Positions 7,871 through 34,494 are shown, counted from the stretch's first letter. The stretch: DNA of 51,991 nucleotides from Candidatus Zhuqueibacterota bacterium (GCA_022562085.1 JADFPY010000002.1:1-51991), one strand, 5' to 3'. The notes: a model not told the origin generated them from the letters alone. Made by a program: numbers and translations.

Positions 7871-7886
7871 TGCTACCTCCTTTCGT

Positions 7887-18220: not shown

Positions 18221-18292
18221 TTAGCTTCTCCAAAGTGAATATCCGCCCTTGTCTTCGTAGATAGTTCCATGTGGCAGGCTCGCTGAATTTAA

Positions 18293-19900
18293 CTACGAGA
18301 CCTGGCCATCCGGAAACAGAGACTGCCGGAGTTCCTGGGTAGCGCTGCTGGCAGTGTTGGCGTTGAAGACCGCAAAAACATAGCGATCTGGCCTAAGAAC
18401 CACAAGATTCACCTGGAATCTATCGAACCAGGCTGCGAGCTTGCTCTCCAGGTCAGCCACGACTGCAAGGCCATCTTCAGGCCCTGGCTGTTCCGTTGCC
18501 CCGATGATCCGGACAAACCTGGTCGACAGGTTCTCCCAAAAAGCTTGCGACTCTGTAGTTATCACGCAGCGAGGATCAACCTCCAGGCCGAGAACAGCGA
18601 AGCCGTGGCCCAGCACCTCATCCAGCAGAACGCTCTCCTCATCTGTCGTGCGCACTTTTGGTTGAATGAATAGTTTGCCCCGGGCCGCACGTGATTGTTG
18701 CTGGCGGTCGCTAGCAACCAAACCACCACGAAAGCTTGCCTCTGGCCTGAATTCTCCACTTCTTACCTTGCGGCCAATGGTAGGTACAAACTTGAGAAGA
18801 CGGAAGAATAGGTTGCGAATCCAGGCAACAGTTCGGCTCTCGGTTTGTAAAATACGACCGAAATTAACTGACATTCTGGTCATTCTCTGAACGTGAGGTT
18901 TTCGTTCGATTTGGTAGGACTGCAGGATCGCGGGGTCGGCATGACCACGAAGAACGAGCGCCATCTTCCAACTCAAATTACTAACATCGCGAATCCCTGA
19001 GTTCATGCCGGTGCCACCAAACGGTGGCGTGAGGTGTGCCGCATCGCCGGCCAGGAAAACCCGCCCAGCAGTCCACTTGTCTGCGATACGGGCATGGTAG
19101 ATGTACACGGACTTGCGGATCAGCTCCACATCTCCTAAATCCACCCAGGGAGCTAACAGCGCTCTGACCGTTTCGAGCTGTTCCATTTGCTCCTGGGTTT
19201 CCCCAGTCTTGAGCATGAACTGCCAGCGATGATGGTTGAACGCCATCGGATAGGTAACAACCGGACGCTTCGGATCACAGATGAATTGGAGATTTGACGG
19301 ATACTTAGATGGATCATCAATCTTGACATCGACAACAAGCCATTGCTGGAAGGTCTTTCCAATCAACTCCGCACCTATCTGATGACGCACAATGCTACGA
19401 CCTCCATCACATCCCAGCAGGTACTTTGCTCTGACCTCGTAAACTTTATCGGTACCATGGTCTCGCACGACGACGGTAACTCCTTCGCCAGAGTCAGAAA
19501 ATGACTCTGCTTCGTTTCCCAGTCGAACTTCAACACAGGGAAATCGGTCAACGCCTTCGCGCAGCGTTTTTTCGATAAATGGCTGATAGAGGAGTATGAA
19601 CACATGGAACCCGTAGCCGAAATCGGTGCTACGTACTTCCAGGAATGGTTTGCCAACACCATCCAGAAACTGTAAAAGATTCTGGGGCAGCAGTTTGGGC
19701 ATGAGCAGATCTGACAAATGGATCGACTGCCAAATGCGCATCGATTCATCATCGCAAGTTCCTGCACGCGGCAACCGGTAAACGGCATCATCACGTTCGA
19801 GCACCAGGGTGCGGATGCCAAGTTGGCCAAACAAGTTTGCAGCCGTCGTGCCAACGGGGCCATACCCCGCGAGGATAATGTCATAGTCCGGGGTCGTCAT
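18293..19900 (-). CDS. FAD-dependent aromatic-ring monooxygenase (PheA/TfdB/MhpA-like)
   Basis: ORF 18293..19945. Preferred ATG at 19900 with GGGAGGA 8 nt upstream. GxGxxG motif DIILAGYGPVGTTAANL. DG and GD motifs GCDGGRSIVR and LAGDAAHLTPPFGGTGMNSGIRD. Confidence 0.8.
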   Translation of the reverse strand: MTTPDYDIILAGYGPVGTTAANLFGQLGIRTLVLERDDAVYRLPRAGTCDDESMRIWQSIHLSDLLMPKLLPQNLLQFLDGVGKPFLEVRSTDFGYGFHVFILLYQPFIEKTLREGVDRFPCVEVRLGNEAESFSDSGEGVTVVVRDHGTDKVYEVRAKYLLGCDGGRSIVRHQIGAELIGKTFQQWLVVDVKIDDPSKYPSNLQFICDPKRPVVTYPMAFNHHRWQFMLKTGETQEQMEQLETVRALLAPWVDLGDVELIRKSVYIYHARIADKWTAGRVFLAGDAAHLTPPFGGTGMNSGIRDVSNLSWKMALVLRGHADPAILQSYQIERKPHVQRMTRMSVNFGRILQTESRTVAWIRNLFFRLLKFVPTIGRKVRSGEFRPEASFRGGLVASDRQQQSRAARGKLFIQPKVRTTDEESVLLDEVLGHGFAVLGLEVDPRCVITTESQAFWENLSTRFVRIIGATEQPGPEDGLAVVADLESKLAAWFDRFQVNLVVLRPDRYVFAVFNANTASSATQELRQSLFPDGQVS

Positions 19901-19922
19901 ACTGAATGTCCTCCCTTCTTCA

Positions 19923-21494
19923 TTATGAATCTTTGTAACTTTCAACCACGGCTTCCGCCGTCTGCTCCGAGATAGCGGAAATGGTCATGCAGGGGTGAAA
20001 CCCCAGTGATGAGGGAATCATGGACCCATCAGCGACGTATAAGCCGGGGTAGCCATGTACTTCTCCCGCGGAGGAAACAACACCCTCTTCGGGTGAATCA
20101 GAGAGATTGCATCCGCCGAGTGGGTGCACGGTGAGAATTCGTTTAAAGATGGTCCAGGTGACCAGTGGGGCAAATGTTCCGCCATAAATATCGCTTACTT
20201 CCTGCATACTTGCAATCATCTTCTCCACCAACTCGTGGTTCTCACGAGCATAATTCCACGTAATATCGAGATTTCCCTTTTTCAACCGGATCTGACCGTT
20301 GGCATTATCCCGTCCAATCGCAAAAAGGTTGGTCATTCTGGCAGGATCACCAGCGTTGGGCATAGACGCTTTACCCGGTTTACTCAACAGTCCTTTCTTA
20401 AATGCCCAAATGAGAATGGACGCCATCTTATGCCACAGTATCGGCGACAGAAAACGCAGCCAACCGTGGTTGGGCTGGCCCATAGCAGCCAAAACTTTCA
20501 TCACCGGTTGACTGAAGCTAGGCGCGGCCATGGTGAACTGAGGCGCCTCGTCAAAATAGCGCATCACGGAAGTGACATCCGGCCCTTTCCATGGTTCGAG
20601 GTCGATCTCACTATTCTGAATGGACCCAAGAAAATCACCATTTCCTGAGAAACCGCTGCCCAGTTTTGCACTAAGCTTGGGCAGGGTTCTGAATACATCA
20701 CGACTCTGGAGTAGAATCTTGTTGGTTCCTAGAGTACCCGCTGAGAGAACCGTACGTGAGGCATCAACACTGCCCGCTTTATCGGTTCCCACGTCTTTAT
20801 AATGCACGCGATAGCCCGATTGCAAAGGCTCAATATGCATGACGTTGATGCCGGTTTGGATGCGAGCGCCCAACTGCTCGGCCTTCGCAAGATAGGTTAG
20901 ATCCAGCGAGTTTTTTGCTCCGTACTGACATCCAAATTCGCACTCCGCTACCATGCGGCAAGCCTCCCGGTCTGGCCCGCCAGGCTCTTGCCAACTCACT
21001 GCCTGGTCTGGATCGAAAACATCTCGATTTAGCTTCTTAGCTGCTTGTCGAAAGATGTCGCGTTTCGGCAATGAGACGTCTGCCGGCACCGGTGCGATGC
21101 CCAGCATATCTGCGACCTTATCGTAGTATGGATCAAGACTCGCGCGGTTAATTAAGCGCGGCCATTTGGGATCTTCAAACACCACAGCGTCCGGTCGGAT
21201 ATGGATATTGGCGTAAATCAAAGATCCACCGCCAACGCCGCTTGCAACAATGGTTCCTATGCCGGAGAAAAAGTCCAATTCATACAAGCCCCGAAAATCC
21301 GATTGTTTCGGGTAACGCCAAAACAAGCTCTTGACATCGGTGACGTCTCTGGGGAATTCGCCGGGTTTGTAGCGTTTGCCGCGCTCCAAAACCAGCACGG
21401 ATTTGCCGGCCTCCGCCAAACGTAAAGCATTTATGGAACCACCGAATCCAGAACCGATGACGACTGCATCGTACTGATGTGGAGAATTATTCAT
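19923..21494 (-). CDS. GMC-family oxidoreductase (cholesterol-oxidase-like)
   Basis: DAVVIGSGFGGSINALRLAEAGKSVLVLERG at the N-terminus. C-terminal VHPLGGC and GLYVADGSMIPSSLGFHPCMTISAISE. The ATG overlaps the upstream stop (ATGA at 21491-21494). Confidence 0.85.
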   Translation of the reverse strand: MNNSPHQYDAVVIGSGFGGSINALRLAEAGKSVLVLERGKRYKPGEFPRDVTDVKSLFWRYPKQSDFRGLYELDFFSGIGTIVASGVGGGSLIYANIHIRPDAVVFEDPKWPRLINRASLDPYYDKVADMLGIAPVPADVSLPKRDIFRQAAKKLNRDVFDPDQAVSWQEPGGPDREACRMVAECEFGCQYGAKNSLDLTYLAKAEQLGARIQTGINVMHIEPLQSGYRVHYKDVGTDKAGSVDASRTVLSAGTLGTNKILLQSRDVFRTLPKLSAKLGSGFSGNGDFLGSIQNSEIDLEPWKGPDVTSVMRYFDEAPQFTMAAPSFSQPVMKVLAAMGQPNHGWLRFLSPILWHKMASILIWAFKKGLLSKPGKASMPNAGDPARMTNLFAIGRDNANGQIRLKKGNLDITWNYARENHELVEKMIASMQEVSDIYGGTFAPLVTWTIFKRILTVHPLGGCNLSDSPEEGVVSSAGEVHGYPGLYVADGSMIPSSLGFHPCMTISAISEQTAEAVVESYKDS

Positions 21495-24400
21495 GATTTT
21501 GTTTCTTCCAGTTGATTTAAGATGTGGGGATAAACATCGCGCACGGCATTCTTGCCATAAATGCAGTCGATGTGCCCATAATCCGGAATCACGAAACGCT
21601 TGTAAAGATCTGCTCCATTCTGGTCACGCAACAGGTTGTAGGTGATTTCGGTGCTCTCGGGCAAGTAGCATTCGTTTTCCTCACCCGAAATGAAAGTAAT
21701 CGGTATCGCCATGCGCTCAAGATGGGGCAGATAACTATCCTCTCCTTGAAGATTGACCAGGTGCCCTTTACGAGACATAAGCGCGAGGTGTTCGAAGGAA
21801 GTAATATTGGCCACTCCAAACAACTCATGCAAGTTGTCATGTGTCAGGCGGTTTAACTGGTCGTGCTCATATAGCTGACCGTACAGGAAAGCGATGCGGT
21901 GGCAAACCGGATTGTTGCAGCGCTCTTCTTTTTGGATCGGATAAAATTTCAGAGCTTCGTTAAACAACTTGTCCGGCCACTTAGCGTCTTTGGCCGTATA
22001 AGCGTTGAGTGATTTTATCCCCATTTTAGCCAGGAAGCTAGGTGTATGTAGACCGGTCTTCATCCTTGATAGGAAGGGCAGCTTCATGTGGGTAGACACT
22101 TGCGAACAGACCGCCGCGCGGACCCCTTGCAGCCAGCCGCCAAGCATGGACATAGACCAGGTTGTCGATCCGTAGCAATGAACCACCATCTGTACACTTT
22201 TCGCAGCAGTGATCTCAAGAACGGCATCGACTGCCCTGGGGTAGTCGTACTTGGCTATCACGTCCCCGCTGAATTGTGCATGCGCAGCTGGGAGCTCAAT
22301 ACTGGCGCGATAATCCAGCAGCCAAACGTCATATTCATGGGCGAAGAGATACTCAACCAGATTCGTGTCGTAAGTATCCATCGAGAAAATACGACTGGAC
22401 ACACCCAATCCGTGTGAAAGTATGACCGGGCCTTTTGAGCCCCCCTGGTAACGAGTCAGACGAAGCGTTACCTGATCCTGGGTCTTGATATCGAAGACCT
22501 CGGGTGCAGAGGCACGCAACGGACGTTTTTTACGGGGGGCAGCATCTGGATTGAAATAATTCTGCCCGGCGAAGATACCACCGAAAGTGTCAAAAAGCCT
22601 CCCGGCAAAAAATGTCCCAAATTGCGCATTGTACTTCAAACACTGCGCCAAACTGCTGGTGTTGGTCACCTTAAGCGTTCGCATCTGCTTCATAAAATCC
22701 ATCGCCCTGATCTTCAGCACACCCTTGCCGAACACCGGACCTCCTTCATTTTCGCCCTCATAGATTGTGATATAGAGCGTCGTAGTATCGCTCCAAAGAT
22801 CAAAACCTGGGTCATCTCGAATCTCTTTGAACCCCTTCAGATAATAATCCTGACCCTCTTGCGAACTCAATTTCATATCATAACGCATCAGGCGAGTTTC
22901 GATCTCGTCGGGATGTTCGGTCAGGAGATTAAAAACACCCTCAGTCACCGTTAAGGCTGCTGTAGAAAGGGCAGGAGCGCTGACAGTACCTATTAGCGTT
23001 GCCTGGTGTCTCTCATCCTGAAGCATTAGTTCAAGATCATTGGAAATGACGGTGACGGTAAACTCAAAAGTCGAGCCCTCTGTCTTACCAAGTTCAGCAG
23101 CCCTTTGATAGTCTTCCTTGATTTTGGTTGAGAAATAGCCCACCATGGTCTCGGTGAACTGAATTCCCACTTTAGATGGTAGCACGGCTTTCGGTGCTCG
23201 CGATGGCAAATCGTAATTGATTCTCCAACCGTGGTCATTGGCAATTAACGCGACATTACGTTCAGCAATTGCGGAGATCGTCAAGAGAGGATTGGTCCCT
23301 AGTGACGTCGGAATAACTGAGCCATCGAGCACGTACAAGCCTCGGTGAACCTCATCACTTTCTTTTGACGCGAATACCTGACCTTTGTGATTCACCACAC
23401 CGTCTGATGACTGTTCAGCCATAATACAACCGCCCAGGGGATGAACGGTGACCAAATTATGACCTAATAGTTTTGTCCATGTCGGATTTGGCACATACGT
23501 TCCCCCCAGCGCTTCTGTCGCCTTGATAAGACGCTTCTTTGCTTTTATGAAAATCTCGTCCTTACCGATCCCCGGCCAGGTAATGCGCAATCTGTCATCT
23601 TGAAGCGTCATGACTCCTCCACAACCATCATGGCACATAACAAGATAAGTTTGTGTATTATTGACCGCGCCACGGTAGGCACTTCCCAGGAAAACACTTT
23701 CCAATTCTCGTTTTTTCTCACCGAGGAAGTCTAACAACCCTTCATCGGTATCTTCACCAATGAATTTGCTGGCAGTTGAAAACAGCAGGGGTAAAATCGC
23801 CGACATTGCTCCAGGAATCGTGCCGTCTTCAATACACATGCCTTCTTTATAATCTTCACTGCTTTTGCGCGTATCGATGATGCTGGTAATACAAGGCCCA
23901 ACGGGGTTATCAGCATCTGGAGTACGATTTCCCCAGCCGATGCCGTTTATCTTTTCATCATTATTATAAGCGAAAGCGATCATATCACCATTTCCACTAA
24001 AATGCTTGCCAAGCATATCCGACGCGGTTAACCCGTTTTGTTTTGAACGCAGTAAAATTTCCGTACTACCCAGCGTCCCGGCTGCCAGGATAACGATGTC
24101 TGCCCGGACGAACAAAGTGGAAGCATCGAATTTTTCCCGTCCCATGCCGGTTGCCTTGAAATGCACGACCCATTTGCCCGCTTGCTTCTCTAGGTAGCGA
24201 ATATTCACTTCCGTAAAAATATCAGCACCATGGTTCCTGGCGTCGGGCAGGTAGTTCATCTGCACCGTATTCTTAGCAGTGTGGTTACAACCAGAGGTAC
24301 AATCGCCACACAAAATGCAAGGAGATTGTTCCACTCCGACATGATTCAGGCCGTCCTTGTTTTCCTCGAATGTAACTGCAATGGGAGTTCGATAAAAATC

Positions 24401-24913
24401 CTCTTTCATATACTTTGCAGATTTTTCGTGCGCGGAGAGTTTTTTCAAAGACGGCAACTTGTCTGGATACGGTACGGGTTTCAACATTTCCCGGGCTCGC
24501 TTGAAACCGGCCGCCACGCCGTCGTTGAGGTCCTGCACCAGCGCTTTTGGCCACGCCGGATTTTGAAAGACCCGGGGGTCAGCCTCGATAGCAACATTCG
24601 CGTTAATCAAGGAGGTACCACCAAGGCCACAACCTACCAAGACATTTATGTCATCATTGGTATGGAAGTCGAAAAGATTCGTTTCAGAGCCAGAGTGGCC
24701 TTTTGGTGTATCGTACTGCGAGTTTGCAGCGGCTTCAGGTAGGGTACTGGGAAAATCGCCTGGAAAGAACTCTTTTCCTCGTTCCAATACACAGACCTGC
24801 TGCCCAGCCCTGGCAAGACGCGATGCGGCGATCCCGCCGCCATAGCCGGATCCGATCACCACAACTGTGTAATGATTCTTGATGTTTTCGATGGGTAGAG
24901 ATAGACGTGACAT
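21491..24913 (-). CDS. Fusion protein: GMC oxidoreductase (cholesterol-oxidase-like) + ~250-aa middle region + C-terminal alpha/beta-hydrolase-fold domain
   Basis: ORF 21491..24928 opens with TTG. Preferred ATG at 24913 with a GAGGA that overlaps the upstream stop codon. The GMC part has VVVIGSGYGGGIAASRLARAGQQVCVLERG, VHPLGGC and GLYVLDGSVIPTSLGTNPLLTISAIAE. The C-terminal part has GPVILSHGLGVSSRIF, the candidate nucleophile region VVHCYGSTTW and the His region IPDYGHIDCIYG. Confidence 0.8.
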   Translation of the reverse strand: MSRLSLPIENIKNHYTVVVIGSGYGGGIAASRLARAGQQVCVLERGKEFFPGDFPSTLPEAAANSQYDTPKGHSGSETNLFDFHTNDDINVLVGCGLGGTSLINANVAIEADPRVFQNPAWPKALVQDLNDGVAAGFKRAREMLKPVPYPDKLPSLKKLSAHEKSAKYMKEDFYRTPIAVTFEENKDGLNHVGVEQSPCILCGDCTSGCNHTAKNTVQMNYLPDARNHGADIFTEVNIRYLEKQAGKWVVHFKATGMGREKFDASTLFVRADIVILAAGTLGSTEILLRSKQNGLTASDMLGKHFSGNGDMIAFAYNNDEKINGIGWGNRTPDADNPVGPCITSIIDTRKSSEDYKEGMCIEDGTIPGAMSAILPLLFSTASKFIGEDTDEGLLDFLGEKKRELESVFLGSAYRGAVNNTQTYLVMCHDGCGGVMTLQDDRLRITWPGIGKDEIFIKAKKRLIKATEALGGTYVPNPTWTKLLGHNLVTVHPLGGCIMAEQSSDGVVNHKGQVFASKESDEVHRGLYVLDGSVIPTSLGTNPLLTISAIAERNVALIANDHGWRINYDLPSRAPKAVLPSKVGIQFTETMVGYFSTKIKEDYQRAAELGKTEGSTFEFTVTVISNDLELMLQDERHQATLIGTVSAPALSTAALTVTEGVFNLLTEHPDEIETRLMRYDMKLSSQEGQDYYLKGFKEIRDDPGFDLWSDTTTLYITIYEGENEGGPVFGKGVLKIRAMDFMKQMRTLKVTNTSSLAQCLKYNAQFGTFFAGRLFDTFGGIFAGQNYFNPDAAPRKKRPLRASAPEVFDIKTQDQVTLRLTRYQGGSKGPVILSHGLGVSSRIFSMDTYDTNLVEYLFAHEYDVWLLDYRASIELPAAHAQFSGDVIAKYDYPRAVDAVLEITAAKSVQMVVHCYGSTTWSMSMLGGWLQGVRAAVCSQVSTHMKLPFLSRMKTGLHTPSFLAKMGIKSLNAYTAKDAKWPDKLFNEALKFYPIQKEERCNNPVCHRIAFLYGQLYEHDQLNRLTHDNLHELFGVANITSFEHLALMSRKGHLVNLQGEDSYLPHLERMAIPITFISGEENECYLPESTEITYNLLRDQNGADLYKRFVIPDYGHIDCIYGKNAVRDVYPHILNQLEETKS

Positions 24914-24924
24914 GATATTGATCC

Positions 24925-27549
24925 TCAAAGATTCCAGAACAGAAATTTCTTCTTTTTCCGTGCCATTTTTGCACTATATCGCTCAAGAATGAATTCTTCG
25001 AATAGGGAAGAAAATACCAACGACTGTTTTTTATTCACTTTGGCGTAGCCCCCCTTGATTAAATTCGTCAACACATATTTTTGGGCATTAGGAACTTTTT
25101 CACGCTGGCACAGGCATAACAAAACATCGCGTTGGTCATCATCGCAGGTATCCCAAATCTGCTGGAAATGCACCCTTGCCTCGTCCAAAAACTCCTCCTT
25201 CACCCGCTCAAAAGTGGCGTCCGTGATACTTTCGTTACTTCTGACGTATTCGAACAGGACGGCACAGGCCATCTGAATAAAAAATGGATAATAGCCCGCG
25301 ATATCAAAGACGAACGGTGCATAATATTCCAGGGAGTATCCTAATTCTTGAGAGGGACCCGTTATCAATTCCAGCGCCTCTTGCTGGCTAAAGTGCGATA
25401 GGGTTGTGTTGGAGAAGATATTAAAAAACGGAGAGTCAGAAATCGCGCGACTGTGGCACAGCGTCTGGAGGTTCCTCCCCGACGAAACAACATACCCAAT
25501 GTTGTAATTGTTGGCGATGGAGCGGAGAAAGGAGTAGAACTCCGTGTCAAATTTTTGGTTTTGGGTGATGCTCTCAAATTCATCAAACAGCATAATGATA
25601 TTTAAGCCATGCTCATCATAGGCTGTTACCACCTTCTTAAAGCCCTCATAGTCGGGTTGGACATCCAGGGCCAGTCCACCTCTGGACTCATCTAAGAGAA
25701 ATGCATAAATAGATTGAAAGAATGTTGGGATGTCAATGCCACGCTTTTCCTGAAAATCGATGAAGACGAACCGGTAATCGTTGGGCCTTTGTAAATATGT
25801 CATCCGAATTTTCGGATGACATAGATAATTGAGCAGGGAGGATTTGCCGATTCTTCTCTCGCCCACAATGGAAACAGACTGGGGTCTTGACGATCCGATC
25901 CTGGAAAAAATCTTGGAAACTTCGCTTTTGCGTCCGTAGAACTCATCTATGTTTTTGATCTTGACCCGATTCATATAGGGGTTTTTGAGTCCTTTTGCGA
26001 ATCCCTTCTCTTCCCCCTCCACATCCAGCGGCGGCGTCAATGTGATTGTCGGTGGCAGGTCGCTTTTTCCCCTGTCAGATGTTTTTTCCCTGATTAATTC
26101 ATCCTCTTGCCATTGGAGTCGGTAGATATCGATTTTTTCGCTTTTGCCTTTCAATAGCTCATTGCAAACAAAAGCCAGGGCGAATTCAGAGTTATCCTTG
26201 ACTTTCTGAAAGACACTATCTGACAATAGTATTTCGTTGGCAGTCGCCCTCTGTTCGACGCGCGCAGCGACATTGACGATATCGCCGTAGACGTCGTTTT
26301 TTTCAATCATAGCCCGGCCGAAATGCAACGCGATTCGAATGGCAATTCGATCCTCCTCCGGTTGAGCCAACGTCTGTTTACGCAGCACTTTCTGCATTGC
26401 GATGCTACAACGACAGCCATTCGCTGCTTCTGTGAAATAGGCCAAAATGGCGTCGCCACTGGTTTTGATCATGTGACCGCTGTGCTGTTCGATGAGAGGG
26501 GTCATAAGGCGAGTGTAGCGGTGCAGCATGGCACGCCCGGACACATCCCCCTTTTGCTCAAAGTAGGCCACTGAGCTAACAACGTCACTGAACATAATCG
26601 TAACGTCTTTTGTGTACTTGCTCACAATGATGTCGTCTATTTTCCGCCTCTGCGATAACAAATCTCTAATGTTGTCCACTCCAGCTTTGAAGTTCGAGGG
26701 GGATTCGAGTCCCACATTTCCTCCACTGCTTGCGCCTTCGTCCATCTCAAGACGACGCTGAATCGTGTGCAGCTCCGAGATCATTTCACGCACCGTGCCG
26801 TACCGTTCCTCTCGTTTTTTCTTCAACGCTTTTTCAATAATTTTGTACAAATCATCCGGTACGTCGGGGAGAGGCTCCGGTTCTTCGTTAATAATCGAGT
26901 AGACCACCTCGACTGGGTGATTGCCACTGAAAGCAAGCCGCCCGCTCAAAAGTTCATAAAAAACAGCTCCCAATGAAAAGATGTCCGAAGCCTGGTCAAC
27001 TTCCTCCCCTCTTGCCTGCTCTGGCGACATATAATGTACCGTGCCTATTTGAGTTCCGAGTGTGGTCAGATCGCCGAGGTTCTTGAGTTTGGCCAAGCCA
27101 AAATCCACGATCTTCACCCTCACATCGCGGCCGATCATGATGTTTTCCGGCTTGATGTCTCGATGCACAATATCAGCTTCATGTGCTGTGCTGAGACCCT
27201 GGCAAACTTGCAGGATTATATCGAGGCTCTCATTCAGAGAGAATTTTTGCTTATCGATGTAATGGCGGAGGGATTCACCCTGGATATACTCCATCGATAT
27301 GTAGATTCGACCTTCGAATTCGTCGATTTCGTAGACGACGACAATATTGGGATGAGTCAACGCTGCAGCCGCTCGCGCTTCCCGTTCAAAACGTGCCTTG
27401 TTCTTGTCGTTTTCGTACAACTGCTGGAACAAAAACTTGAGCGCCACTTTACGATGAAGTTTGCTATCCTCGGCAAGATAAACCTCTCCCATGCCGCCCT
27501 GACCCAATTTCTCCAGTATTTTATAATGGGATATGGTTTTTCCGATCAT
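24925..27549 (-). CDS. Triple fusion: Hanks-type Ser/Thr protein kinase + class III adenylate/guanylate cyclase domain + Arch_ATPase/STAND-like ATPase module
   Basis: Kinase: LGQGGMGEVYLA, VALK, HRDIKPENIM, DFGLAK, YMSPEQ. Cyclase: VTIMFSDVVSS...GDAILAYF...ALHFGRAM...YGDIVNVAARVEQ. Module: NPYMNRVKIKNIDEFYGRKSEV, GERRIGKS (nt 25840-25863), IIMLFDEFE, tail KKKKFLFWNL. Confidence 0.85.
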   Translation of the reverse strand: MIGKTISHYKILEKLGQGGMGEVYLAEDSKLHRKVALKFLFQQLYENDKNKARFEREARAAAALTHPNIVVVYEIDEFEGRIYISMEYIQGESLRHYIDKQKFSLNESLDIILQVCQGLSTAHEADIVHRDIKPENIMIGRDVRVKIVDFGLAKLKNLGDLTTLGTQIGTVHYMSPEQARGEEVDQASDIFSLGAVFYELLSGRLAFSGNHPVEVVYSIINEEPEPLPDVPDDLYKIIEKALKKKREERYGTVREMISELHTIQRRLEMDEGASSGGNVGLESPSNFKAGVDNIRDLLSQRRKIDDIIVSKYTKDVTIMFSDVVSSVAYFEQKGDVSGRAMLHRYTRLMTPLIEQHSGHMIKTSGDAILAYFTEAANGCRCSIAMQKVLRKQTLAQPEEDRIAIRIALHFGRAMIEKNDVYGDIVNVAARVEQRATANEILLSDSVFQKVKDNSEFALAFVCNELLKGKSEKIDIYRLQWQEDELIREKTSDRGKSDLPPTITLTPPLDVEGEEKGFAKGLKNPYMNRVKIKNIDEFYGRKSEVSKIFSRIGSSRPQSVSIVGERRIGKSSLLNYLCHPKIRMTYLQRPNDYRFVFIDFQEKRGIDIPTFFQSIYAFLLDESRGGLALDVQPDYEGFKKVVTAYDEHGLNIIMLFDEFESITQNQKFDTEFYSFLRSIANNYNIGYVVSSGRNLQTLCHSRAISDSPFFNIFSNTTLSHFSQQEALELITGPSQELGYSLEYYAPFVFDIAGYYPFFIQMACAVLFEYVRSNESITDATFERVKEEFLDEARVHFQQIWDTCDDDQRDVLLCLCQREKVPNAQKYVLTNLIKGGYAKVNKKQSLVFSSLFEEFILERYSAKMARKKKKFLFWNL
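24928..25983 (-). other. ATPase module copy 2 (domain of the kinase-cyclase protein)
   Basis: 352 aa, collinear with copy 1 (9625-10680). Shared strings include NIDxFYGRKSEV, SRPQSxSIVGERRIGKSSLL, FIDFQEK, SPFFNIFSN, AGYYPFFIQ, VHFQQIWD and KKKKFLF. Confidence 0.8.
26110..26607 (-). other. Class III nucleotidyl cyclase (CHD) domain inside the kinase-cyclase-ATPase protein
   Basis: About aa 315-480. The metal-binding Asp positions lie in MFSDVV and SGDAIL. The transition-state region is YGDIVNVAARVE. Confidence 0.75.
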
Positions 27550-27552
27550 GAT

Positions 27553-28662
27553 CTAAGAGTCGTTTATTGCGCTTCTACTGAAACTGCCTTGCAGCTTCCT
27601 TAGCCAGCGCGAGAACCGTCCACGCTCTGGCAACCCGGTGCCGTTTATTTCTGCAACTAACTTCTTAAATACCGGTGAATATAGCTGAGGGCGATCGCCG
27701 GTCATAACAACATAATTCCGTCTGACGAGATCATCAAGGACGTATACTTTGGCTTTGTCAATTCGCTTTGACTTCATTAGGAGTTTGAAGATTTCCTTCT
27801 GGTCGTCGTTAAACGATTGCCATAAGGATTTGAAATAGCTTTCAACTTCAGCGCAAAACCTGGCCTCCCACACCCTCAGGTCAGCCGGCTCAAGGCTGGC
27901 ACGCGCCACCTTCATATCAAAAAGGATACTGCAAGCCGCTTGCAGCATAAAGGGAAAATGGCCAGCCATATTGAGGATCAGCTTGCGTTCGGAATTCACG
28001 GATAGACCGGCTCTATGAAATGGTTCCTCTATGAGCTGTATCGCTTCATCTTGTTCAAAGGGCTTCAGGGTGACATTTGTAAAAATGTTAAAGAATGGCG
28101 ATTCCTCTATATCTTTGGAAACACAGAGTTTTTGTAAATCCATAAAAGATGACGTGACAAAAGCCAGATTGAAGTTATTCGCCAATGAACGCAAGAATGA
28201 AAAAAACTCGAGCGGAAAAGTTTCGTTTTGAGTAATCAGATGAAAATCATCGAAGAACAGGATGATCTTCTTGTCTTTTTGATTCAGGTTTTCGATGATG
28301 CTCTTGAACAAATCATAACTGGGTTCGGCTTCTCTGATCTCAGTTATCACTTTGGTTTTTTGAGAAATACCGTTGCATAGAGAGATGTAGAAATTTTTAA
28401 AGGAGAGGTTCCTTTCCAACCTGATGGGCATATAAAAGTAGATATAGTCATCAGGGTTCTTAAGCCACGTTCGTCTCGTCTCTTCGAGCGCCAGATACCA
28501 CAAGAGGGAAGATTTCCCAATCTTTGGCTCACCAACGACTGAGATAGACTGCGGGCGGTCCGCGCCAATACGTGAGTAAATCTTCGTAAGCACATTGGTC
28601 CGTCCAAAGAAAAGATCGCGGTTTGTAACAGGGCTTTTGTAATCGTAAAGGTTTTGCATCAT
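27553..28662 (-). CDS. Stand-alone Arch_ATPase/STAND-like P-loop ATPase (module copy 3)
   Basis: LFFGRTNVLTKIYSRIGADRPQSISVVGEPKIGKSSLLWYL (Walker A nt 28510-28533). Walker B IILFFDDFH. SPFFNIFTN, AGHFPFMLQ, and the winged-helix-like LDDLVRRNYVVM. The ATG overlaps the upstream stop by 1 nt (TAATG). Confidence 0.8.
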   Translation of the reverse strand: MMQNLYDYKSPVTNRDLFFGRTNVLTKIYSRIGADRPQSISVVGEPKIGKSSLLWYLALEETRRTWLKNPDDYIYFYMPIRLERNLSFKNFYISLCNGISQKTKVITEIREAEPSYDLFKSIIENLNQKDKKIILFFDDFHLITQNETFPLEFFSFLRSLANNFNLAFVTSSFMDLQKLCVSKDIEESPFFNIFTNVTLKPFEQDEAIQLIEEPFHRAGLSVNSERKLILNMAGHFPFMLQAACSILFDMKVARASLEPADLRVWEARFCAEVESYFKSLWQSFNDDQKEIFKLLMKSKRIDKAKVYVLDDLVRRNYVVMTGDRPQLYSPVFKKLVAEINGTGLPERGRFSRWLRKLQGSFSRSAINDS

Positions 28663-29972
28663 TAGAAACCGAGCTGAAAACCCACCGTTGCAATAAAGTC
28701 TGATCTCAGCCCACCAGCATTGAGAGGAACTATTATATTGCCAATCAAGATAAACTCTGGCTTGGGGTTAAACTTTAGACCCAGTGAAGCATTCAGGTTA
28801 TGGTCATGAGAAAAACTGGGAATATTCGTCAACATCACTTCCCGCACGGCATTCCCGGCCGGTCGCTCTAAGGTGACGGACTTTCCGAATCGCAGCTCTT
28901 CAATTTCATCGCCGATTTCGAATTCGCCCAGGAAATCTACAGATAATGTCAGCCATGTTGCCAACTTTTGATCATAACCGACAAAAAGTTCGATTTCATC
29001 GGGATCGAGATCGTTGTTTCGGCGGTCGTAGGTCAAATTCAGGTGGGGTCCAAAATTCCCAATAATGGCCGAGGCGATCAGCATCGCCCGAAAACTTGAG
29101 TGGCCAGTGCCCAGGAAGTTTTCTTCATCGCCCGTTGCGGCACGATACTCAAGCAAGCCCGCGAGACCAAGCGTCTTCCCGCGAAGAAAGCTATACTTGG
29201 CACGAAGAGCGATATCACCGATGCCCGCATCATCATCATTTAGAGAAGTTGGCCTCAGCGATAGGATGGGGTCCGACGGGGTACCGCCGGGAAAACTATG
29301 GTTTGCCGTATCGTTGCTAACAAAGGTGAAGCTATTTATTCGAGCGATGGGATCAGCGTTTACACTGACATTGACGAACGGCACAGCAATGCTGATATCA
29401 AAATGATTCGTGATGCCCGCCGTCAGGTTGAACGAAACAATGGTCGCGTTCAAATCCAAATTCATGAAAAGATCAATGGTATCGAATTCATTGTCAGAGT
29501 CGCCAAGGCCGGGCGCTCCCACATCCTGGTGGGTAAAGGTAAAGCGAATGTCTTCAGTCTTGAGACCCCGGAGTTTAGAGAAGTTGAGAACACTTAGGTT
29601 GAGCCCCAGACTGAACCGGCCCTTGCCCAAGGTTTGCGCTCGTTCAGAAAAGATTGGGCCCATGCTCGTAGTCGTACTCACGGGCTGACCGGTACTAAAA
29701 TCGAAGGTCAAACCAGCTTCAGTAGAACCGAGTGGAAAGGAGGCGATATTTGCAGCAATGAAGCTGGCAAATGAGTTTATGGTCGCCTCGCTCAACGCCA
29801 CGTTGTCCGCCCTAAAATGGGTCCCGTGTTCCCCGGGGCCGGCGAGTTCGATCTCCAGAACTTCACCGAAGATATTACCTATTTTATCCCGTAAACTTTG
29901 GCCAACAACGGTCTGTGACGGAGCCAGCGCTACAATAAGCCACACCGCCACAACCAATCGATTTGAGTGCAT
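28662..29972 (-). CDS. Putative outer-membrane beta-barrel protein (MetA-pathway/phenol-degradation-like transporter family is a guess)
   Basis: Signal peptide MHSNRLVVAVWLIVALAPSQTVVGQ with AGGAGG upstream. Alternating hydrophobic beta-strand pattern throughout. GIGDIALRAKY motif. C-terminal ...TVGFQLGF ends in Phe, as in OMP sorting signals. Confidence 0.6.
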   Translation of the reverse strand: MHSNRLVVAVWLIVALAPSQTVVGQSLRDKIGNIFGEVLEIELAGPGEHGTHFRADNVALSEATINSFASFIAANIASFPLGSTEAGLTFDFSTGQPVSTTTSMGPIFSERAQTLGKGRFSLGLNLSVLNFSKLRGLKTEDIRFTFTHQDVGAPGLGDSDNEFDTIDLFMNLDLNATIVSFNLTAGITNHFDISIAVPFVNVSVNADPIARINSFTFVSNDTANHSFPGGTPSDPILSLRPTSLNDDDAGIGDIALRAKYSFLRGKTLGLAGLLEYRAATGDEENFLGTGHSSFRAMLIASAIIGNFGPHLNLTYDRRNNDLDPDEIELFVGYDQKLATWLTLSVDFLGEFEIGDEIEELRFGKSVTLERPAGNAVREVMLTNIPSFSHDHNLNASLGLKFNPKPEFILIGNIIVPLNAGGLRSDFIATVGFQLGF

Positions 29973-29995: not shown

Positions 29996-32446
29996 TTACC
30001 CACCTCGGCTGATGTTAGAGATAAGCCAAGTAGTGCTTGCTTCAGCGAGTTGAATCTGCCATGTAAAGCGATTGTCAGAATTGACGAAGCCACTATACTT
30101 CAGGCGAACATCTACAGAAGTCGTAACGCCATTTTCGCGAAAGGTAAATTTCTCGATCGACAATTGGGCTTCAATATTATCCACGGTTTTGAACACCTGA
30201 GACCATTGTGTTTCCATCTTTTTAGTGAAGTTCACATAGAGACTTTTTAACGACTGAATATCCTTATTTTCCAGAGCTTGTCCATATTGGGCAATTACAG
30301 ATCGGATATTTTTTATTTGGCCTTTGCGCACGACGATACTGGCTTCATAAAATTGTTGAGCTCGTCGATAGCTCTGGACAGCCGCGGTAGCGTCCCCACT
30401 TTGCAATTGCGACTCGCCGTTCCTTTCCGCCTTTGCGGCCTGCTGATAGTCATCCAAAAATACATACTGTTCGTCAAGCTGGCCCTTTATTTTCTGGAGA
30501 CTCTTCCGAAGTGCCTCGGCTTGTGTGGCAAAGTTGGCGGAAGCCGTACGTGCTTCTGCGGCGGCAGATAAGTATAGTTGCTGGGCGTGCTGAAAATCGG
30601 TACTCGCCGTCTGAAACCGCTTTTTAGAAAAGGAGCGTCTCGCTGCTCTCTCTTTTTGCCTGGCGGCGTTAAAAGACTTTTCCGCAAGCGCGGCCGCGGA
30701 AACCTTTTCTGCTGCCGTTTTGGCACTGCTCATCCTATTCCGCCAGCTTATTGCCTGGCTTTGAGCAGCGGCCGTTCGACTCCTGGCATCCTCTCCCGCT
30801 TTAACACGGGCCTGCTCGATTGCTTCCTCTTTTTCAGCGCGATCGACCGATTCTTCGAATTTTTCTTTGGCGCGCTGGAACAAATCTATTGCACTGGTAT
30901 AATCAAGCTGATCAAAAACTGTAAGCCCTTGTTGTTTCAACTGCAAACCGGAGTCAAAGGATGCTTCGGCATACTTGGAAGCATTTTTCTGAACGGCTTG
31001 CTCCTCGGCGATCTCCATGGCTTCTCGCGCTTTCCCTGCCGACTCCAGATCGTTCAATTCAGCCGGAGGTTCTGCGGTCTTGATTTCGGACGGTGGTATG
31101 ATAGTTTGAAACCGCTCCTTTAGCTCCGGCAGAAACCGCGTTATCAGGATACCGAACAAAGTGGCAACCACGACGACTACCGGCCATTTTCTCCGTCTCC
31201 TTTTCGTCGGGCCACGACTTGTCTGGCTTGGAATACCTTGGTCGGTACTGACTTCCACTGGCGCCCTTTTCTCTTCGGTTAGGTCAGACCCGACATCTTT
31301 GATAACGCTCCAGATCGAGTGATCACGTTTTATCCACCCTCTAAAGAGATCCATCTTGAAACTGTAGCCGTCGTCAGTCTTATTGACAAACTGACTGTGG
31401 AACAGACTTTCCAGAGTCGTGTTGATGGCTTGTACACTTGCATTAATACCGAGCTCGCGTTTTTTGCATCGTTTTTCGATCTGCTTGGCTTCTACGGAGG
31501 TATTCTCATCTTTCAGCAATTCCGCCATAAGAGAAAGAACGAGTTTCTTATTATTGGACAGGCTGTTCCAGAAGTAGATCATCTGAGGGAGAGGGTTTTC
31601 CATGATTTCATCAGCGATCACTTTCAAATCTTGCTTGTCGACGTGATTTTTTTCCTTGTCATTCAAATGATCAACAATGTTCTGACAAACCACCTGGGTA
31701 TAAAATGGCTGTCCGGCAGTGAGCCGGCGGATGGCGTCAAGGGCATCATCTTCATAGCTCACATAGTCCGGAACTGGCTCCGTAATCAATCGCAGCGTAT
31801 CTCGCTCAGAGAGAAAACTGACATTACGATAGAGGGACTTGGGAAGCATGATCGACCAGTATTTGCTTTCCCGGTCATCTAACCGCGTCGAGCCGGTCAA
31901 AATATAAGAGACTTTGCGTTCGCTCTCCAGGATGCCGGCCAAGAAAGGGACCAAATTTGCGCTTAGACTGCCTTCATCGATTTTCGATTCGATCAACTCG
32001 TACTCATCAATCAGAAAGAGTATCTTCTTATCCGGATTGAGCGTTTGCACATCATCGAGTAGCTTGTCGAATACTTTGTAGGGATTTTCCTTTTGGGACA
32101 GGAAATCATAGTCGTTAAGATCGATCTTGTCATCCTGCAGACATTTGACGGTTTCCTTGGCGACTTTTTCGAAAAACTCCGCGTCATTTTTTAGACCGGC
32201 CATGGTTTGCATGTCCACCAGAATGGGAAGAAAGCTCGTCCCCAATTCTCCATTTAAGATTTGAAACAAAATAGAAGTTTTTCCGCTTCGCCGTTCCCCA
32301 CAGAATACGATGACAAAACTCTGATCCCCCGCCTCGAGTTTGCGTTTTACAAAATCAAAGTCGTCAGCTCGGCCATAGAACATCTCTCTGGATTTAATAG
32401 GGTTGCCGACAATGTACGGATTGGGAATGGGCTTGAATTCAGACAT
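29996..32446 (-). CDS. Arch_ATPase/STAND-like ATPase (module copy 4) + single TM helix + three helical Ala/Gln-rich repeats + C-terminal NTF2/SnoaL-like domain
   Basis: ORF 29996..32578; preferred ATG at 32446 (MSEFKPIPNPYIVGNPI...). FYGRADDF, GERRSGKT (nt 32276-32299), Walker B ILFLIDEYE, AGQPFYTQ. TM helix RRRRKWPVVVVVATLFGILITRFL (about nt 31130-31190). Repeats have the form A..A...F..A...(Y/F)..A...F..A. The C-terminus IAQYGQALENKDIQSLKSLY...WLISNI is NTF2-like. Confidence 0.75.
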   Translation of the reverse strand: MSEFKPIPNPYIVGNPIKSREMFYGRADDFDFVKRKLEAGDQSFVIVFCGERRSGKTSILFQILNGELGTSFLPILVDMQTMAGLKNDAEFFEKVAKETVKCLQDDKIDLNDYDFLSQKENPYKVFDKLLDDVQTLNPDKKILFLIDEYELIESKIDEGSLSANLVPFLAGILESERKVSYILTGSTRLDDRESKYWSIMLPKSLYRNVSFLSERDTLRLITEPVPDYVSYEDDALDAIRRLTAGQPFYTQVVCQNIVDHLNDKEKNHVDKQDLKVIADEIMENPLPQMIYFWNSLSNNKKLVLSLMAELLKDENTSVEAKQIEKRCKKRELGINASVQAINTTLESLFHSQFVNKTDDGYSFKMDLFRGWIKRDHSIWSVIKDVGSDLTEEKRAPVEVSTDQGIPSQTSRGPTKRRRRKWPVVVVVATLFGILITRFLPELKERFQTIIPPSEIKTAEPPAELNDLESAGKAREAMEIAEEQAVQKNASKYAEASFDSGLQLKQQGLTVFDQLDYTSAIDLFQRAKEKFEESVDRAEKEEAIEQARVKAGEDARSRTAAAQSQAISWRNRMSSAKTAAEKVSAAALAEKSFNAARQKERAARRSFSKKRFQTASTDFQHAQQLYLSAAAEARTASANFATQAEALRKSLQKIKGQLDEQYVFLDDYQQAAKAERNGESQLQSGDATAAVQSYRRAQQFYEASIVVRKGQIKNIRSVIAQYGQALENKDIQSLKSLYVNFTKKMETQWSQVFKTVDNIEAQLSIEKFTFRENGVTTSVDVRLKYSGFVNSDNRFTWQIQLAEASTTWLISNISRGG

Positions 32447-32747: not shown

Positions 32748-33475
32748 CTAATGAGCTTGACAGCTTATTACCTTTGCCCCCTGTTTAATACTAAAACAGA
32801 ATCCTAGCCACAACCCATGGTGAGACAGGCTGATATCAATTTCAGTCTGTTTATTATCCAATAATAGAAAAGGCGGTTGCGGCCTACGTGCTTTAGAAGG
32901 ACGAATAATTTGCAGCCGCGATGGCGCAACTTTTAGTTCTTTTGCTACTAATTTCTTGCAATGAAAGCGTACCAGAGCCGATTCCGCATGATGGATTGAA
33001 ACGAGTTCTTCTTTTGTAAAATGTTCCGACCAACTGTTCGGATTTTGCCAATCCTTTAACTCAGAATGCGTTACCTGATGCACCTTTTCGCTCAATAAAT
33101 AGTTTGGCAGCTCACTGGTATTTGCATGCGCGCCAACGGCATGAATGTAATTTATATTGGTAGCTAATTCTATTTGAAATTGCCGCGCATCATAAACAAC
33201 TTCAAATTTAGACTTTGATTTCGAAATTTTTTGTATGAAAAGACCGGAGGCCTGGTTATTTTTGAAATGATTTTGTAGGCAGTTTCTTTGGCTGCCCAGA
33301 ACATCCAGAGGGTTAAATCAGGATTTTCTGAGAGCGAAATAGCGGATTTTTCTTCACGGCTGAAAACTCTTTCAACAAAGCGGGCACTATAAAATTTACC
33401 TGTGATGCCCGCTTCGTTTAAATCAACAATATCATTGCCTAACAGTAGCAAAATAAGCCTGTTCCATGAGTCCAA
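32748..33475 (-). pseudogene. 4'-phosphopantetheinyl transferase superfamily gene interrupted by a frameshift in an A6 run
   Basis: The upstream frame (33170..33475) carries LGNDIVDL and WAAKETAYKI. The downstream frame is open from 33317 to 32748. It carries KFEVVYDARQF...NYIHAVGAH, FTKEEL, and IDISLSHHGLW. The two frames can be joined by 1 nt at the run T6/A6 at 33227-33232. Confidence 0.6.
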
Positions 33476-34181
33476 GCTTGCTTATTATTTGGATGGCGAC
33501 ATCCCTTGTAGCGCGTAAACCAGAGTACCTGCTCCGGGGTCTTATGAGTTCCATATCGACATAGAAACGTGCGCCTCGAGGCGGAATGCTGCTGTATTCT
33601 TCTTGATTATGGCCACGTAAATACACACACAAGACATTGCAATCTGTAAACTTATTTACTAATCTACCAACACCGTAAGTGAGACTACCCAAATCAATTC
33701 TACCGGTTCTACTTCTACTGCCTTCGGGAAAGACAGTTATTGTATGGCCTTTTTTGAGAAGGTAGATTACTTTATCGAGAGATTTTTTTACGGCGCTTCT
33801 GCTACCACCTCGATCAATTGGAACACAACTACCGAGATAGCATAAAATCCGTAAAATAAAATTTTGATGGATGTTAGCCCGCTCTGGTAAATTCCATGAG
33901 AAAATTTTAAAAGAGCGCATATAGGAAAATATTGAAGCCAGACTCCAGTTCAAGATAACCGAATCTATTTTTGTAAGGTGATTTGAACACACAATTATTG
34001 GACCTTCCACGCTTCGCTTAAGTTGTTTATAATGTCTACGAATTTCACGCAATTGTTGAACTTTATATCTGCAAACGAAACGCATGAAAGCAATGTAAAA
34101 CGTACCCCAAAACGGAAAGGTGATCCAGCCAACAAGGTACTGAATTTTCAAAGCAAACTTTTCTTTGAACTTCAAGTCCAT
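33432..34181 (-). CDS. Lysophospholipid (1-acyl-sn-glycerol-3-phosphate-type) acyltransferase, PlsC/LPLAT family
   Basis: HX4D motif CSNHLTKIDS. Motif III VFPEGSRSRTG. N-terminal hydrophobic anchor. Confidence 0.8.
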   Translation of the reverse strand: MDLKFKEKFALKIQYLVGWITFPFWGTFYIAFMRFVCRYKVQQLREIRRHYKQLKRSVEGPIIVCSNHLTKIDSVILNWSLASIFSYMRSFKIFSWNLPERANIHQNFILRILCYLGSCVPIDRGGSRSAVKKSLDKVIYLLKKGHTITVFPEGSRSRTGRIDLGSLTYGVGRLVNKFTDCNVLCVYLRGHNQEEYSSIPPRGARFYVDMELIRPRSRYSGLRATRDVAIQIISKLGLMEQAYFATVRQ

Positions 34182-34197
34182 AACACAAACTCACTAC

Positions 34198-34443
34198 TCA
34201 TATTTTAGCCAAAATCAAATTCACACCATCTCCAACAGTGGTTACGTTGTCTGCATCATCATCGTCAACTTCAATGTCAAATACATCTTCAAAATCAAGT
34301 ACAATGTCTACCAGTCTGGCAGAATTTATTTTTAACTCATCTAAAATTGACGTCTCCATTGAAATGTTTTCCATTTTAATTTCAGCTTTACTATATTTGC
34401 TCAAAATATCGACGATTTTTTTAAAGACTTCATCTTTAGTCAT
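34198..34443 (-). CDS. Acyl carrier protein
   Basis: 81 aa and acidic. The phosphopantetheine Ser context LDELKINSARLVDIVLDFEDVFDIEV corresponds to the DSL-helix II motif. Confidence 0.75.
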   Translation of the reverse strand: MTKDEVFKKIVDILSKYSKAEIKMENISMETSILDELKINSARLVDIVLDFEDVFDIEVDDDDADNVTTVGDGVNLILAKI

Positions 34444-34494
34444 TTTTAAAATCTCCTTAAGGATGTTTAAATATCTTTTTGTTTTTTTTATTGT

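Follow-up and report, generated by a model that had tools for sequence, protein, structure and literature searches.

STAND modules are nucleotide-driven oligomerisation switches. Where such a module is fused to a cyclase or a kinase, the protein is usually interpreted as an immune receptor or as a self-contained unit of sensor, switch and effector. The mycobacterial proteins of the Rv0386, Rv1358 and Rv2488c type contain a class III cyclase, an NB-ARC-like ATPase, TPR repeats and a LuxR helix-turn-helix domain. PknK contains a Hanks kinase and a large MalT-like STAND ATPase region plus repeats, which shows that a kinase-STAND fusion is possible. The curated family TIGR03903 (TOMM system kinase/cyclase fusion protein) is defined by a neighbourhood with a cyclodehydratase and a TOMM (thiazole/oxazole-modified microcin) precursor. 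In our study, a stretch of 51,991 nucleotides (nt) from Candidatus Zhuqueibacterota bacterium (GCA_022562085.1, JADFPY010000002.1:1-51991; hereafter the window) was analysed, in which the gene at 24925..27549 (minus strand) was found to encode a protein of 874 amino acids (aa) and to be the last gene of a conserved four-gene cassette. We hold, with moderate confidence, that this protein is a dual-output signalling enzyme, in which a PknB-like Ser/Thr kinase and a class III adenylyl cyclase, their activities predicted from residues, both stand N-terminal to a minimal STAND NTPase of the nSTAND2 family without sensor repeats C-terminal to it. A sensor-less minimal STAND module was found together with two signalling enzymes, and was syntenic across about ten phyla with a membrane-anchored paralogous ATPase.

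The 874-aa protein resembles the Rv0386 type in that a single chain contains a class III adenylyl cyclase and, C-terminal to the cyclase, a STAND-type P-loop NTPase; its closest solved cyclases are mycobacterial. However, the Rv0386-type proteins have no kinase, belong to another STAND clade and contain TPR repeats and a LuxR DNA-binding domain after the ATPase, whereas the 874-aa protein ends 14 residues past its winged helix and its presumed sensor is located on a separate membrane protein. The N-terminal Hanks kinase followed by a class III cyclase is shared with TIGR03903, the profile of which aligned to residues 33-459. The score was 166.8 bits against a cut-off of 705.75 bits, only profile positions 4-445 of 1267 matched, and the C-terminal 800 profile positions were unrelated to nSTAND2; no TOMM or cyclodehydratase gene was found among the open reading frames (ORFs) of the window that were scanned. 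The kinase was closest in structure to Mycobacterium tuberculosis PknB (40% identity, TM-score 0.88; Foldseek with the full-length model) and, like PknB, was of the RD type with Thr residues in the activation loop, but PknB is a transmembrane receptor with PASTA domains, and neither PknB nor PknK has a cyclase. Although it would work in a similar way to the Rv0386-type proteins and PknK, the 874-aa protein is a member of neither group, as its STAND clade is another one and TPR and LuxR are absent. The animal receptor guanylyl cyclases contain a kinase-homology domain, a helical linker and a class III cyclase. The 874-aa protein has the same order of kinase-like domain, helix and cyclase, its cyclase would likewise be governed by dimer geometry, and NPR1 was among the weak PDB matches of the cyclase; in the animal proteins, however, a pseudokinase stands in the position of the kinase and the receptor belongs to the same polypeptide, whereas the 874-aa protein has a predicted active kinase and a STAND NTPase after the cyclase.

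The initial annotation, which was made from the sequence alone, had described the kinase-cyclase-ATPase order as an unfamiliar architecture. The order and the domains are real, but the architecture is not unique, as it is shared by a family in Calditrichota and a curated kinase/cyclase fusion family exists in TIGR03903, of which the 874-aa protein is not a member. The novelty is a STAND-controlled signalling enzyme with both a kinase and a cyclase, STAND fusions to either one being already known. Of greater interest is that the fusion is consistently paired with a membrane-anchored, STAND-like protein, the putative receptor. A literature search on the architecture, on PEGA with STAND and on TIGR03903 gave nothing relevant, and no paper describing the family was found.

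Domain Organisation of the Fusion Protein

The fusion gene begins with ATG, and its product was compared with 16 full-length homologues of 49-91% identity (alignment A1, 17 sequences; residue numbers follow the true protein numbering). The homologues share the MIGK... N-terminus, and therefore the annotated start is right. A kinase, a class III cyclase and an ATPase had already been read in one 874-aa protein; Pfam confirmed all three, and every motif listed before was found in its expected place. The catalytic residues of the three domains were invariant or nearly so in the 16 homologues, and those of the cyclase were aligned residue by residue with the characterised cyclase Ma1120. The alignments show no loss of essential kinase or cyclase residues, a loss that would have spoken against the earlier reading, and they support the prediction that all three domains are catalytically competent.

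The Hanks-type (PknB-like) Ser/Thr kinase domain comprised residues 9-271 (26737..27525, minus strand; Pfam, alignment A1 and Foldseek). Pkinase (PF00069) matched residues 9-252 with an E value of 7e-54 and 183.3 bits (cut-off 31.7). The domain contained GQGGMG at 16-21, VALK with K38, HRDIKPEN at 129-136, DFG at 149-151 and SPE at 175-177. The residues G16-G21, K38, E57, H129-R130-D131, K133, N136, D149-F150-G151, S175-P176-E177, D189 and R249 were invariant in the 17 sequences, and the activation loop (149-177) contained conserved Thr residues.

The cyclase part (26113..26670, minus strand; Pfam, Ma1120 alignment and AlphaFold) consisted of a helix (residues 294-312) leading into a class III cyclase catalytic domain (about 313-479), which was confidently folded in the AlphaFold model. 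Guanylate_cyc (PF00211) matched residues 310-476 with an E value of 3e-16 and 60.1 bits (cut-off 21.9). The motifs FSD with D322, KTSGDA with K362 and D366, and DVYGDIVNVAAR with D419, N426 and R430 were present. In alignment A1 the metal residues D322 and D366, the residues of base recognition (adenine) K362 and D419, N426 and the phosphate-binding R405 were invariant, and the transition-state R430 was retained in all sequences but one (at least 90%), the homologue P0004 having Gln at this position. The best solved relative was the Mycobacterium avium adenylyl cyclase Ma1120 (E 9e-21), and mycobacterial Rv1900c was also among the nearest solved cyclases. K362, D419, N426 and R430 aligned with K101, D157, A164 and R168 of Ma1120, respectively. 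Mutagenesis of Ma1120 has identified K101 and D157 as the residues that determine its preference for ATP (PMC4215837). Because K362 and D419 fall on these two residues, the domain is predicted to be a homodimeric adenylyl cyclase; the initial annotation had left the substrate-specifying pair to be inspected, and it was found to be the Lys/Asp pair of the adenylyl type and not the Glu/Cys pair of the GTP type.

It is very unlikely that the cyclase domain makes no cyclic AMP (cAMP) and serves only to dimerise or regulate the kinase, or that it makes another cyclic nucleotide. The modest Pfam score, the Gln of P0004 and the mutual regulation of kinase-like and cyclase domains in the animal receptor guanylyl cyclases would be consistent with such a role. 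Against this, six canonical catalytic positions and the phosphate-binding Arg were kept in 15-16 of the 16 homologues and aligned with tested residues of Ma1120.

The nSTAND2 NTPase module comprised residues 521-861 (24967..25989, minus strand; Pfam, invariant motifs, AlphaFold and Foldseek). PF20702 (Novel STAND NTPase 2) matched residues 554-810 over profile positions 2-270 of 279 with an E value of 9e-49 and 166.7 bits (cut-off 24). The module contained the Walker A motif GERRIGKS at 563-570 and the Walker B motif LFDEFE with D656 and E657. In the alignments A1, A2 and A4, G563-S570, D656-E657, FYGRKSE at 537-543 (hhGRxxE-type) and G752..P755 (GxP) were invariant or nearly so, and the same was found for the NPYMNRV, FYGR and SPFFN motifs. 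The AlphaFold model of residues 515-874 had a mean predicted local distance difference test (pLDDT) of 90.8 and a predicted template modelling score (pTM) of 0.86, and showed a P-loop core, a helical domain, a winged helix at 821-845 and then one terminal helix. Foldseek returned the archaeal ATPases 2qen and 2fna first and ORC/Cdc6 after them, and the module profile matched 2fna in the PDB with an E value of 1e-7. The model and the Foldseek matches agree with the STAND-type ATPase and winged-helix-like end that had been suggested before. No sensor repeats of the TPR, WD40 or LRR type were present, as Pfam found no repeat domain and the protein stops 14 residues past the winged helix and last helix. 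The full-length AlphaFold model had a pTM of 0.37 and was uninformative on the packing between domains. The linker between cyclase and module (residues ~488-520) was disordered, and much of the divergence of the fusion from its counterpart in the related locus L001 was located in it.

The last 13 residues (862-874, ...RKKKKFLFWNL; 24928..24966, minus strand) form a basic-hydrophobic tail, which is proposed to be a membrane-targeting peptide. The tail had low pLDDT in the full-length and module models. In alignment A1 the C-termini of the homologues passed from a stretch of basic residues into hydrophobic and aromatic ones, W872 being invariant, and comparable tails close the solo paralogues and nearly all C-terminal modules of other phyla (88 loci). 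The translations bore out that KKKKFLF is found in this module and in that of an RND efflux pump of the window, being the very C-terminus of the latter and followed by WNL in the former. The string had been linked to a shared input; it is the version, in these two proteins, of a basic-hydrophobic C-terminal tail that runs through the whole family. In some relatives the tails read ..GGFLKRLFG, ..SLLKRLFG, ..SLLGRLFGG, ..SLLGRLFGGGKK and ..LLQRLFGKKN, and Escherichia coli MinD ends ..KKGFLKRLFGG. The terminal peptide of MinD is an amphipathic membrane-targeting helix, one copy of which is too weak until ATP-dependent dimerisation adds avidity (PMC8155659). Because the tails of relatives nearly match this helix, the family tail is probably a membrane-targeting peptide and not the mark of a shared input, and we infer the same for the divergent tail of the 874-aa protein itself. 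MinD and the nSTAND2 proteins are alike as P-loop ATPases that end in a short basic-hydrophobic peptide, near-identical in some relatives. They differ in that MinD belongs to the SIMIBI class with a deviant Walker A motif, whereas the module has a STAND/AAA+-like fold, and in that the tail of the 874-aa protein, with its predicted membrane binding, is more divergent.

Distribution of the Architecture

At least 17 further protein clusters contained the three-domain architecture, as did about ten species-level genomes from different projects, all of them Calditrichota. A Caldithrix metagenome-assembled genome (L020) was 89% identical over the part of the gene that was present (residues 657-874), which indicates that the window is from a Caldithrix-like organism. 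The chance that the ORF is an assembly or frameshift artefact joining separate genes, a concern already raised in the initial annotation, is practically negligible. In one locus (L006, GCA_966190085.1) the kinase (344 aa, 7016..8050) and the cyclase-nSTAND2 part (576 aa, 8001..9731) were called as two overlapping genes in different frames, as such an artefact would predict; but the fusion was uninterrupted on many independent contigs from the clusters and genomes above, to which L006 is the exception. The split in L006 is most simply a frameshift, with a genuine split of the fusion as the alternative.

Related architectures sorted by phylum, each in coherent phyla. The cyclase-nSTAND2 fusion without a kinase was found in Spirochaetota and Cloacimonadota, and the kinase-nSTAND2 fusion without a cyclase in Gemmatimonadota, Glassbacteria, Eisenbacteria, Latescibacterota, Krumholzibacteriota, Fibrobacterota, Acidobacteriota and KSB1. 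An nSTAND2-SpoIIE fusion was found in Poribacteria. The module profile matched 1,714 representatives of clusters at 50% identity with E <= 1e-30, and 7,780 with E <= 1e-10. Among 71 long representatives taken from the best profile matches for a census of fused domains, Pkinase was found in 27, Guanylate_cyc in 10, SpoIIE in three and a sigma-54 activator in three.

The Four-Gene Cassette

The initial annotation did not cover a third nSTAND2 gene upstream of the fusion, the membrane-anchored partner ATPase, the four-gene cassette or the family-wide tail. The genes of the cassette encode, in order, a single-pass membrane ATPase, an outer-membrane barrel, a stand-alone (solo) nSTAND2 protein and the fusion. 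The operon status rests on gene junctions of 0-23 nt and on synteny. In Calditrichota the four-gene order was retained where the fusion was only 44-59% identical and the flanking genes differed.

The partner ATPase is encoded at 29996..32446 (minus strand; Pfam ATPase_2/AAA_14), with M45 of an ORF running to 32578 as its likely true start, homologues aligning from about ORF residue 45. It contained a cytoplasmic ATPase_2/STAND-like NTPase with the Walker A motif GERRSGKT, a transmembrane helix at ORF residues 464-483 after a basic stretch, and a coiled-coil/TPR-like extracytoplasmic part of about 375 aa, in which Pfam gave only sub-threshold TPR and NTF2-like hints. The protein was weakly similar to nSTAND2 (22-28% identity). 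In other phyla the extracytoplasmic part of the partner was made up of PEGA repeats, or a TPR region preceded the transmembrane helix. The beta-barrel protein (436 aa, Phenol_MetA_deg family; 28662..29972, minus strand; Pfam E 4e-8) had a signal peptide and the C-terminal residues ...GFQLGF, and at its position in the cassette it was essentially confined to Calditrichota. The solo nSTAND2 paralogue (369 aa; 27553..28662, minus strand; Pfam E 1e-35) is located 3 nt upstream of the fusion gene and was 34-36% identical to the fused modules. It contained intact Walker A (GEPKIGKS) and Walker B (FFDDF) motifs and an amphipathic basic tail. Its orthologues were found at the same position in L001, L002, L003, L006, L009, L010, L012, L014 and L015, and GxxxxGK[ST] was kept in all 23 of 23 solo orthologues. 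No NCBIfam family was found for the solo nSTAND2 protein, the barrel or the partner ATPase.

The cassette was compared by tblastn in 80 loci, one per species (L009-L088). In 64 of them, which belong to about ten phyla, a tightly spaced homologue of the membrane ATPase was located on the same strand at a distance of a few kb at most; the 16 others comprised 11 short contigs and five loci with ample flank. The solo paralogue was present in 18 of the 27 cyclase-bearing loci and in none of the 48 kinase-only loci. These counts bear on the idea that the nSTAND2 module is an autonomous switch, which would sense a cytoplasmic ligand or nucleotide state alone and homo-oligomerise, the neighbouring ATPases being independent paralogues. 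The five ample-flank loci without a partner, the Calditrichota loci L011 and L013 without a solo paralogue, and the nSTAND2-SpoIIE gene of Poribacteria with no partner gene nearby are consistent with this idea. We nevertheless consider it improbable, since the partner is syntenic across phyla, the solo paralogue tracks the cyclase domain strictly, and sensor repeats are absent from the module.

Two adjacent genes for STAND NTPases with winged helix-turn-helix domains, one of them with variable effectors, have been predicted to form a hetero-oligomer by Kaur et al. (2021; eLife, PMC8195603, Fig. 6C). In their nSTAND2 operon the effector-bearing copy has eroded nucleoside triphosphate (NTP) motifs, and the effectors are GT4 or HEPN with C-terminal TPRs (PMC8195603). 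The window likewise contains two adjacent STAND NTPase genes (27553..28662 and 24925..27549, 3 nt apart), but both copies keep the Walker A and B motifs and the effectors are a kinase and a cyclase. The identity of the module with the nSTAND2 of Kaur et al. was examined and rejected, as WP_094198012.1 from their alignment had no PF20702 match and reached a probability of only 5.7% against the module profile in hhalign. Pfam PF20702 and the supplementary nSTAND2.aln of Kaur et al. are seemingly not the same set, the Kaur sequence being without a Pfam match at E <= 1.

Proposed Mechanism and the Alternative of Defence

Class III cyclases are active only as dimers, and PknB-type RD Hanks kinases become active when they dimerise and their activation loops are phosphorylated in trans. 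The nSTAND2 module has no sensor of its own; in the most economical model, the membrane ATPase is the sensor. In such a model, an envelope signal would reach the extracytoplasmic domain of the partner ATPase as the receptor, accompanied by the solo nSTAND2 protein and, in Calditrichota, by the outer-membrane barrel. Partner, solo paralogue and fusion would then co-assemble through their ATP-bound STAND domains at the inner face of the inner membrane, and the individually weak C-terminal tails would aid the assembly by membrane avidity, as in MinD. The assembly would place the cyclase domains in the head-to-tail dimer needed for catalysis and bring the RD kinase domains close enough for trans-phosphorylation of their activation loops, so that the output would be cAMP and protein phosphorylation. 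We give a roughly even chance to the proposal that both enzymes are activated through nucleotide-dependent co-assembly at the membrane, the cyclase because it dimerises and the kinase because it is phosphorylated in trans.

Several observations support this proposal. Among them are results given elsewhere in this text: the intact and conserved catalytic residues, the STAND fold without repeats, the retention of the cassette, the wide occurrence of the partner ATPase, the MinD-like tails, the restriction of each architecture to coherent phyla, and the cytoplasmic position of the RND module. Both nSTAND2 paralogues of the cassette retain their NTP-binding motifs, and the partner has the topology of a receptor, with a Walker A motif, one transmembrane helix after a basic stretch and an extracytoplasmic PEGA or coiled-coil part. 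Related modules carry the classical signalling outputs of kinase, cyclase, SpoIIE and sigma-54 activator, and the neighbouring genes of the cassette are metabolic and not defence genes.

Other observations weigh against it. The cassette encodes no cAMP receptor, FHA protein or phosphatase. The tail of the 874-aa protein (KKKKFLFWNL) is short and less MinD-like than those of some relatives. The promoter and terminator scans over 21000-33600 gave 19 and 13 predictions, against 14.2 +/- 3.9 and 13.1 +/- 3.8 in shuffled sequences, respectively, and marked no operon boundaries. In the census described above, the same module family was fused to TIR in six and to caspase in four of the 71 representatives, both being typical immune or cell-death effectors. 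Among nine genes shared between the window and its closest relative, L001, the fusion (90% identity) and the partner ATPase (91%) were the most diverged, the other seven being 94-99% identical, and this faster divergence would also fit an arms race.

The last two points lead to the main rival, a counter-invader or programmed-cell-death system similar to NOD-like receptors (NLRs), in which the STAND modules would detect phage or envelope damage and the kinase and cyclase would be effectors, causing shutdown or making an alarm nucleotide. STAND NTPases are frequent as immune switches (Kaur et al., 2021; PMC8195603). Close PF20702 modules are fused not only to TIR and caspase but also to CHAT, which was seen separately from the census, and in one Calditrichota relative a caspase gene (Peptidase_C14 + Lcl_C, L003 3261..4781) is located immediately upstream of the cassette. 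The kinase matched generic defence-kinase models of PADLOC, and the cyclase matched a PycC (Pycsar) model. The best PycC match, however, was only 41 bits, under the 78 bits scored against bona fide adenylyl cyclases, and the cyclase has the purine Lys/Asp pair. The cassette differs from Pycsar further in that Pfam scans of the window and the relatives found no effector binding a cyclic nucleoside monophosphate (cNMP) encoded in it, and no cNMP-activated toxin is adjacent. PADLOC gave no match for the solo nSTAND2 protein, the barrel or the partner ATPase, and otherwise only generic kinase, weak PycC or PDC-S27 matches. The neighbours are metabolic genes and not defence islands, the distribution is coherent by phylum, and an extracytoplasmic sensor together with an RND fusion fits envelope physiology more simply. 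On this evidence a defence role seems unlikely to us, though it should be kept in view.

Returning to membrane co-assembly, the cassette may, as a wider and more tentative proposal, represent a widespread and undescribed type of transmembrane signalling. A single-pass receptor, with a STAND-like ATPase on its cytoplasmic side and PEGA, coiled-coil or TPR as its extracytoplasmic sensor, would recruit soluble nSTAND2-enzyme fusions with MinD-like tails into an ATP-dependent hetero-oligomer at the membrane (a signalosome), the fused enzymes being a kinase, an adenylyl cyclase, a PP2C phosphatase, a sigma-54 activator or an RND pump. If this is true, the signalosome would differ from both two-component systems and classical receptor kinases, and the 874-aa protein would be the first example of one such switch driving cAMP synthesis and Ser/Thr phosphorylation together. 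The co-assembly proposed above, if real, would provide a testable model of a sensor-less STAND module driven in trans, and would connect the sensing of the envelope directly with cAMP and Ser/Thr phosphorylation in phyla that have been little studied (Calditrichota, Spirochaetota, Gemmatimonadota, Acidobacteriota and others).

The Module of the RND Efflux Pump

A further nSTAND2 module (9625..10683, minus strand; residues 1102-1454) was found at the cytoplasmic C-terminus of an RND efflux permease, the whole gene of which is located at 9622..13986 (Pfam: ACR_tran E 3e-175, nSTAND2 E 9e-46). The C-terminus of RND proteins is cytoplasmic in the AcrB topology, and the fused module therefore faces the same compartment as the nSTAND2 modules of the cassette. 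Its identity with the module of the 874-aa protein, earlier estimated by eye at about 60%, was 64% over 340 aa (BLASTP, E 7e-167), which is above chance level. The two modules were said to be both 352 aa long; they are equal in length, but comprise 353 aa when cut from KNPY to the end. The RND module was 69% identical to P0004, 64% to the paralogue in its own genome and 53-58% to more distant Calditrichota. Because it nests by identity and in a neighbour-joining tree within the Calditrichota kinase-cyclase clade, it is a recent duplicate of the module of the kinase-cyclase protein, and this origin makes the earlier suggestion that the pump and the 874-aa protein respond to the same input plausible. 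The duplicated module would enter the same assembly, where it would be a regulated output or would report the state of the pump. If so, an RND efflux pump would be open to regulation in an unexpected way.

The RND-nSTAND2 fusion is genuine, as it was also found on the metagenome contigs L090 and L091 (95% protein and 98% DNA identity), where it ends ...KKKRFLF. It is lineage-specific, since these two were the only further examples and none was found in the 88 loci or in the best 120 database matches. About 45 nt past the stop codon of the RND-nSTAND2 gene, an insertion sequence (IS) of 1.68 kb is located at 7897..9577 (transposase ORF 8035..9351, plus strand, DDE_Tnp_1/DUF772). That this IS has cut the RND tail short was ruled out, as the fusion of L090 has no IS and still ends ...KKKRFLF. 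The IS was absent from L090 and L091, which were 98% identical to the window on the RND side of the insertion and 89% on the far side, and in which an ORF of 123 aa (SnoaL-like; 7526..7897 in the window) directly follows the RND gene. No membrane-fusion gene (HlyD-type) is adjacent to the RND-nSTAND2 gene (9622..13986); an OEP outer-membrane factor is encoded at 5700..7241 (minus strand), and a separate OEP and HlyD pair at 47644..50326 (plus strand).

Neighbouring Genes

Downstream of the cassette, the tightly packed genes at 16571..24928 (minus strand) encode a 1145-aa fusion of a GMC oxidoreductase with an alpha/beta-hydrolase, another GMC oxidoreductase, and proteins of the FAD_binding_3 and FAD_binding_4 families. 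These redox genes were 94-99% identical in L001 and L020 and were absent around the cassette in more distant Calditrichota. The GMC and FAD oxidoreductase genes were ruled out as members of the system, being kept only in the closest relatives. Upstream, at 33432..38993 (minus strand), a cluster similar to fatty-acid synthesis was found, with an acyltransferase, a beta-ketoacyl synthase, a FabA-like protein, KAS III and an enoyl-reductase-like protein.

A fifth STAND-type signalling protein (641 aa) is encoded at 40007..41932 (plus strand) and contains an N-terminal ATPase_2/nSTAND1-like NTPase and a C-terminal Pkinase domain. The NTPase shared 21-25% identity with the nSTAND2 modules and with the partner ATPase, and the Pkinase domain shared 46% with its counterpart in the 874-aa protein, which suggests a lineage-specific expansion of STAND-kinase signalling. 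The gene preceding it (39431..39940, plus strand) encodes a TPR-like protein of 169 aa with hydrophobic segments at both ends.

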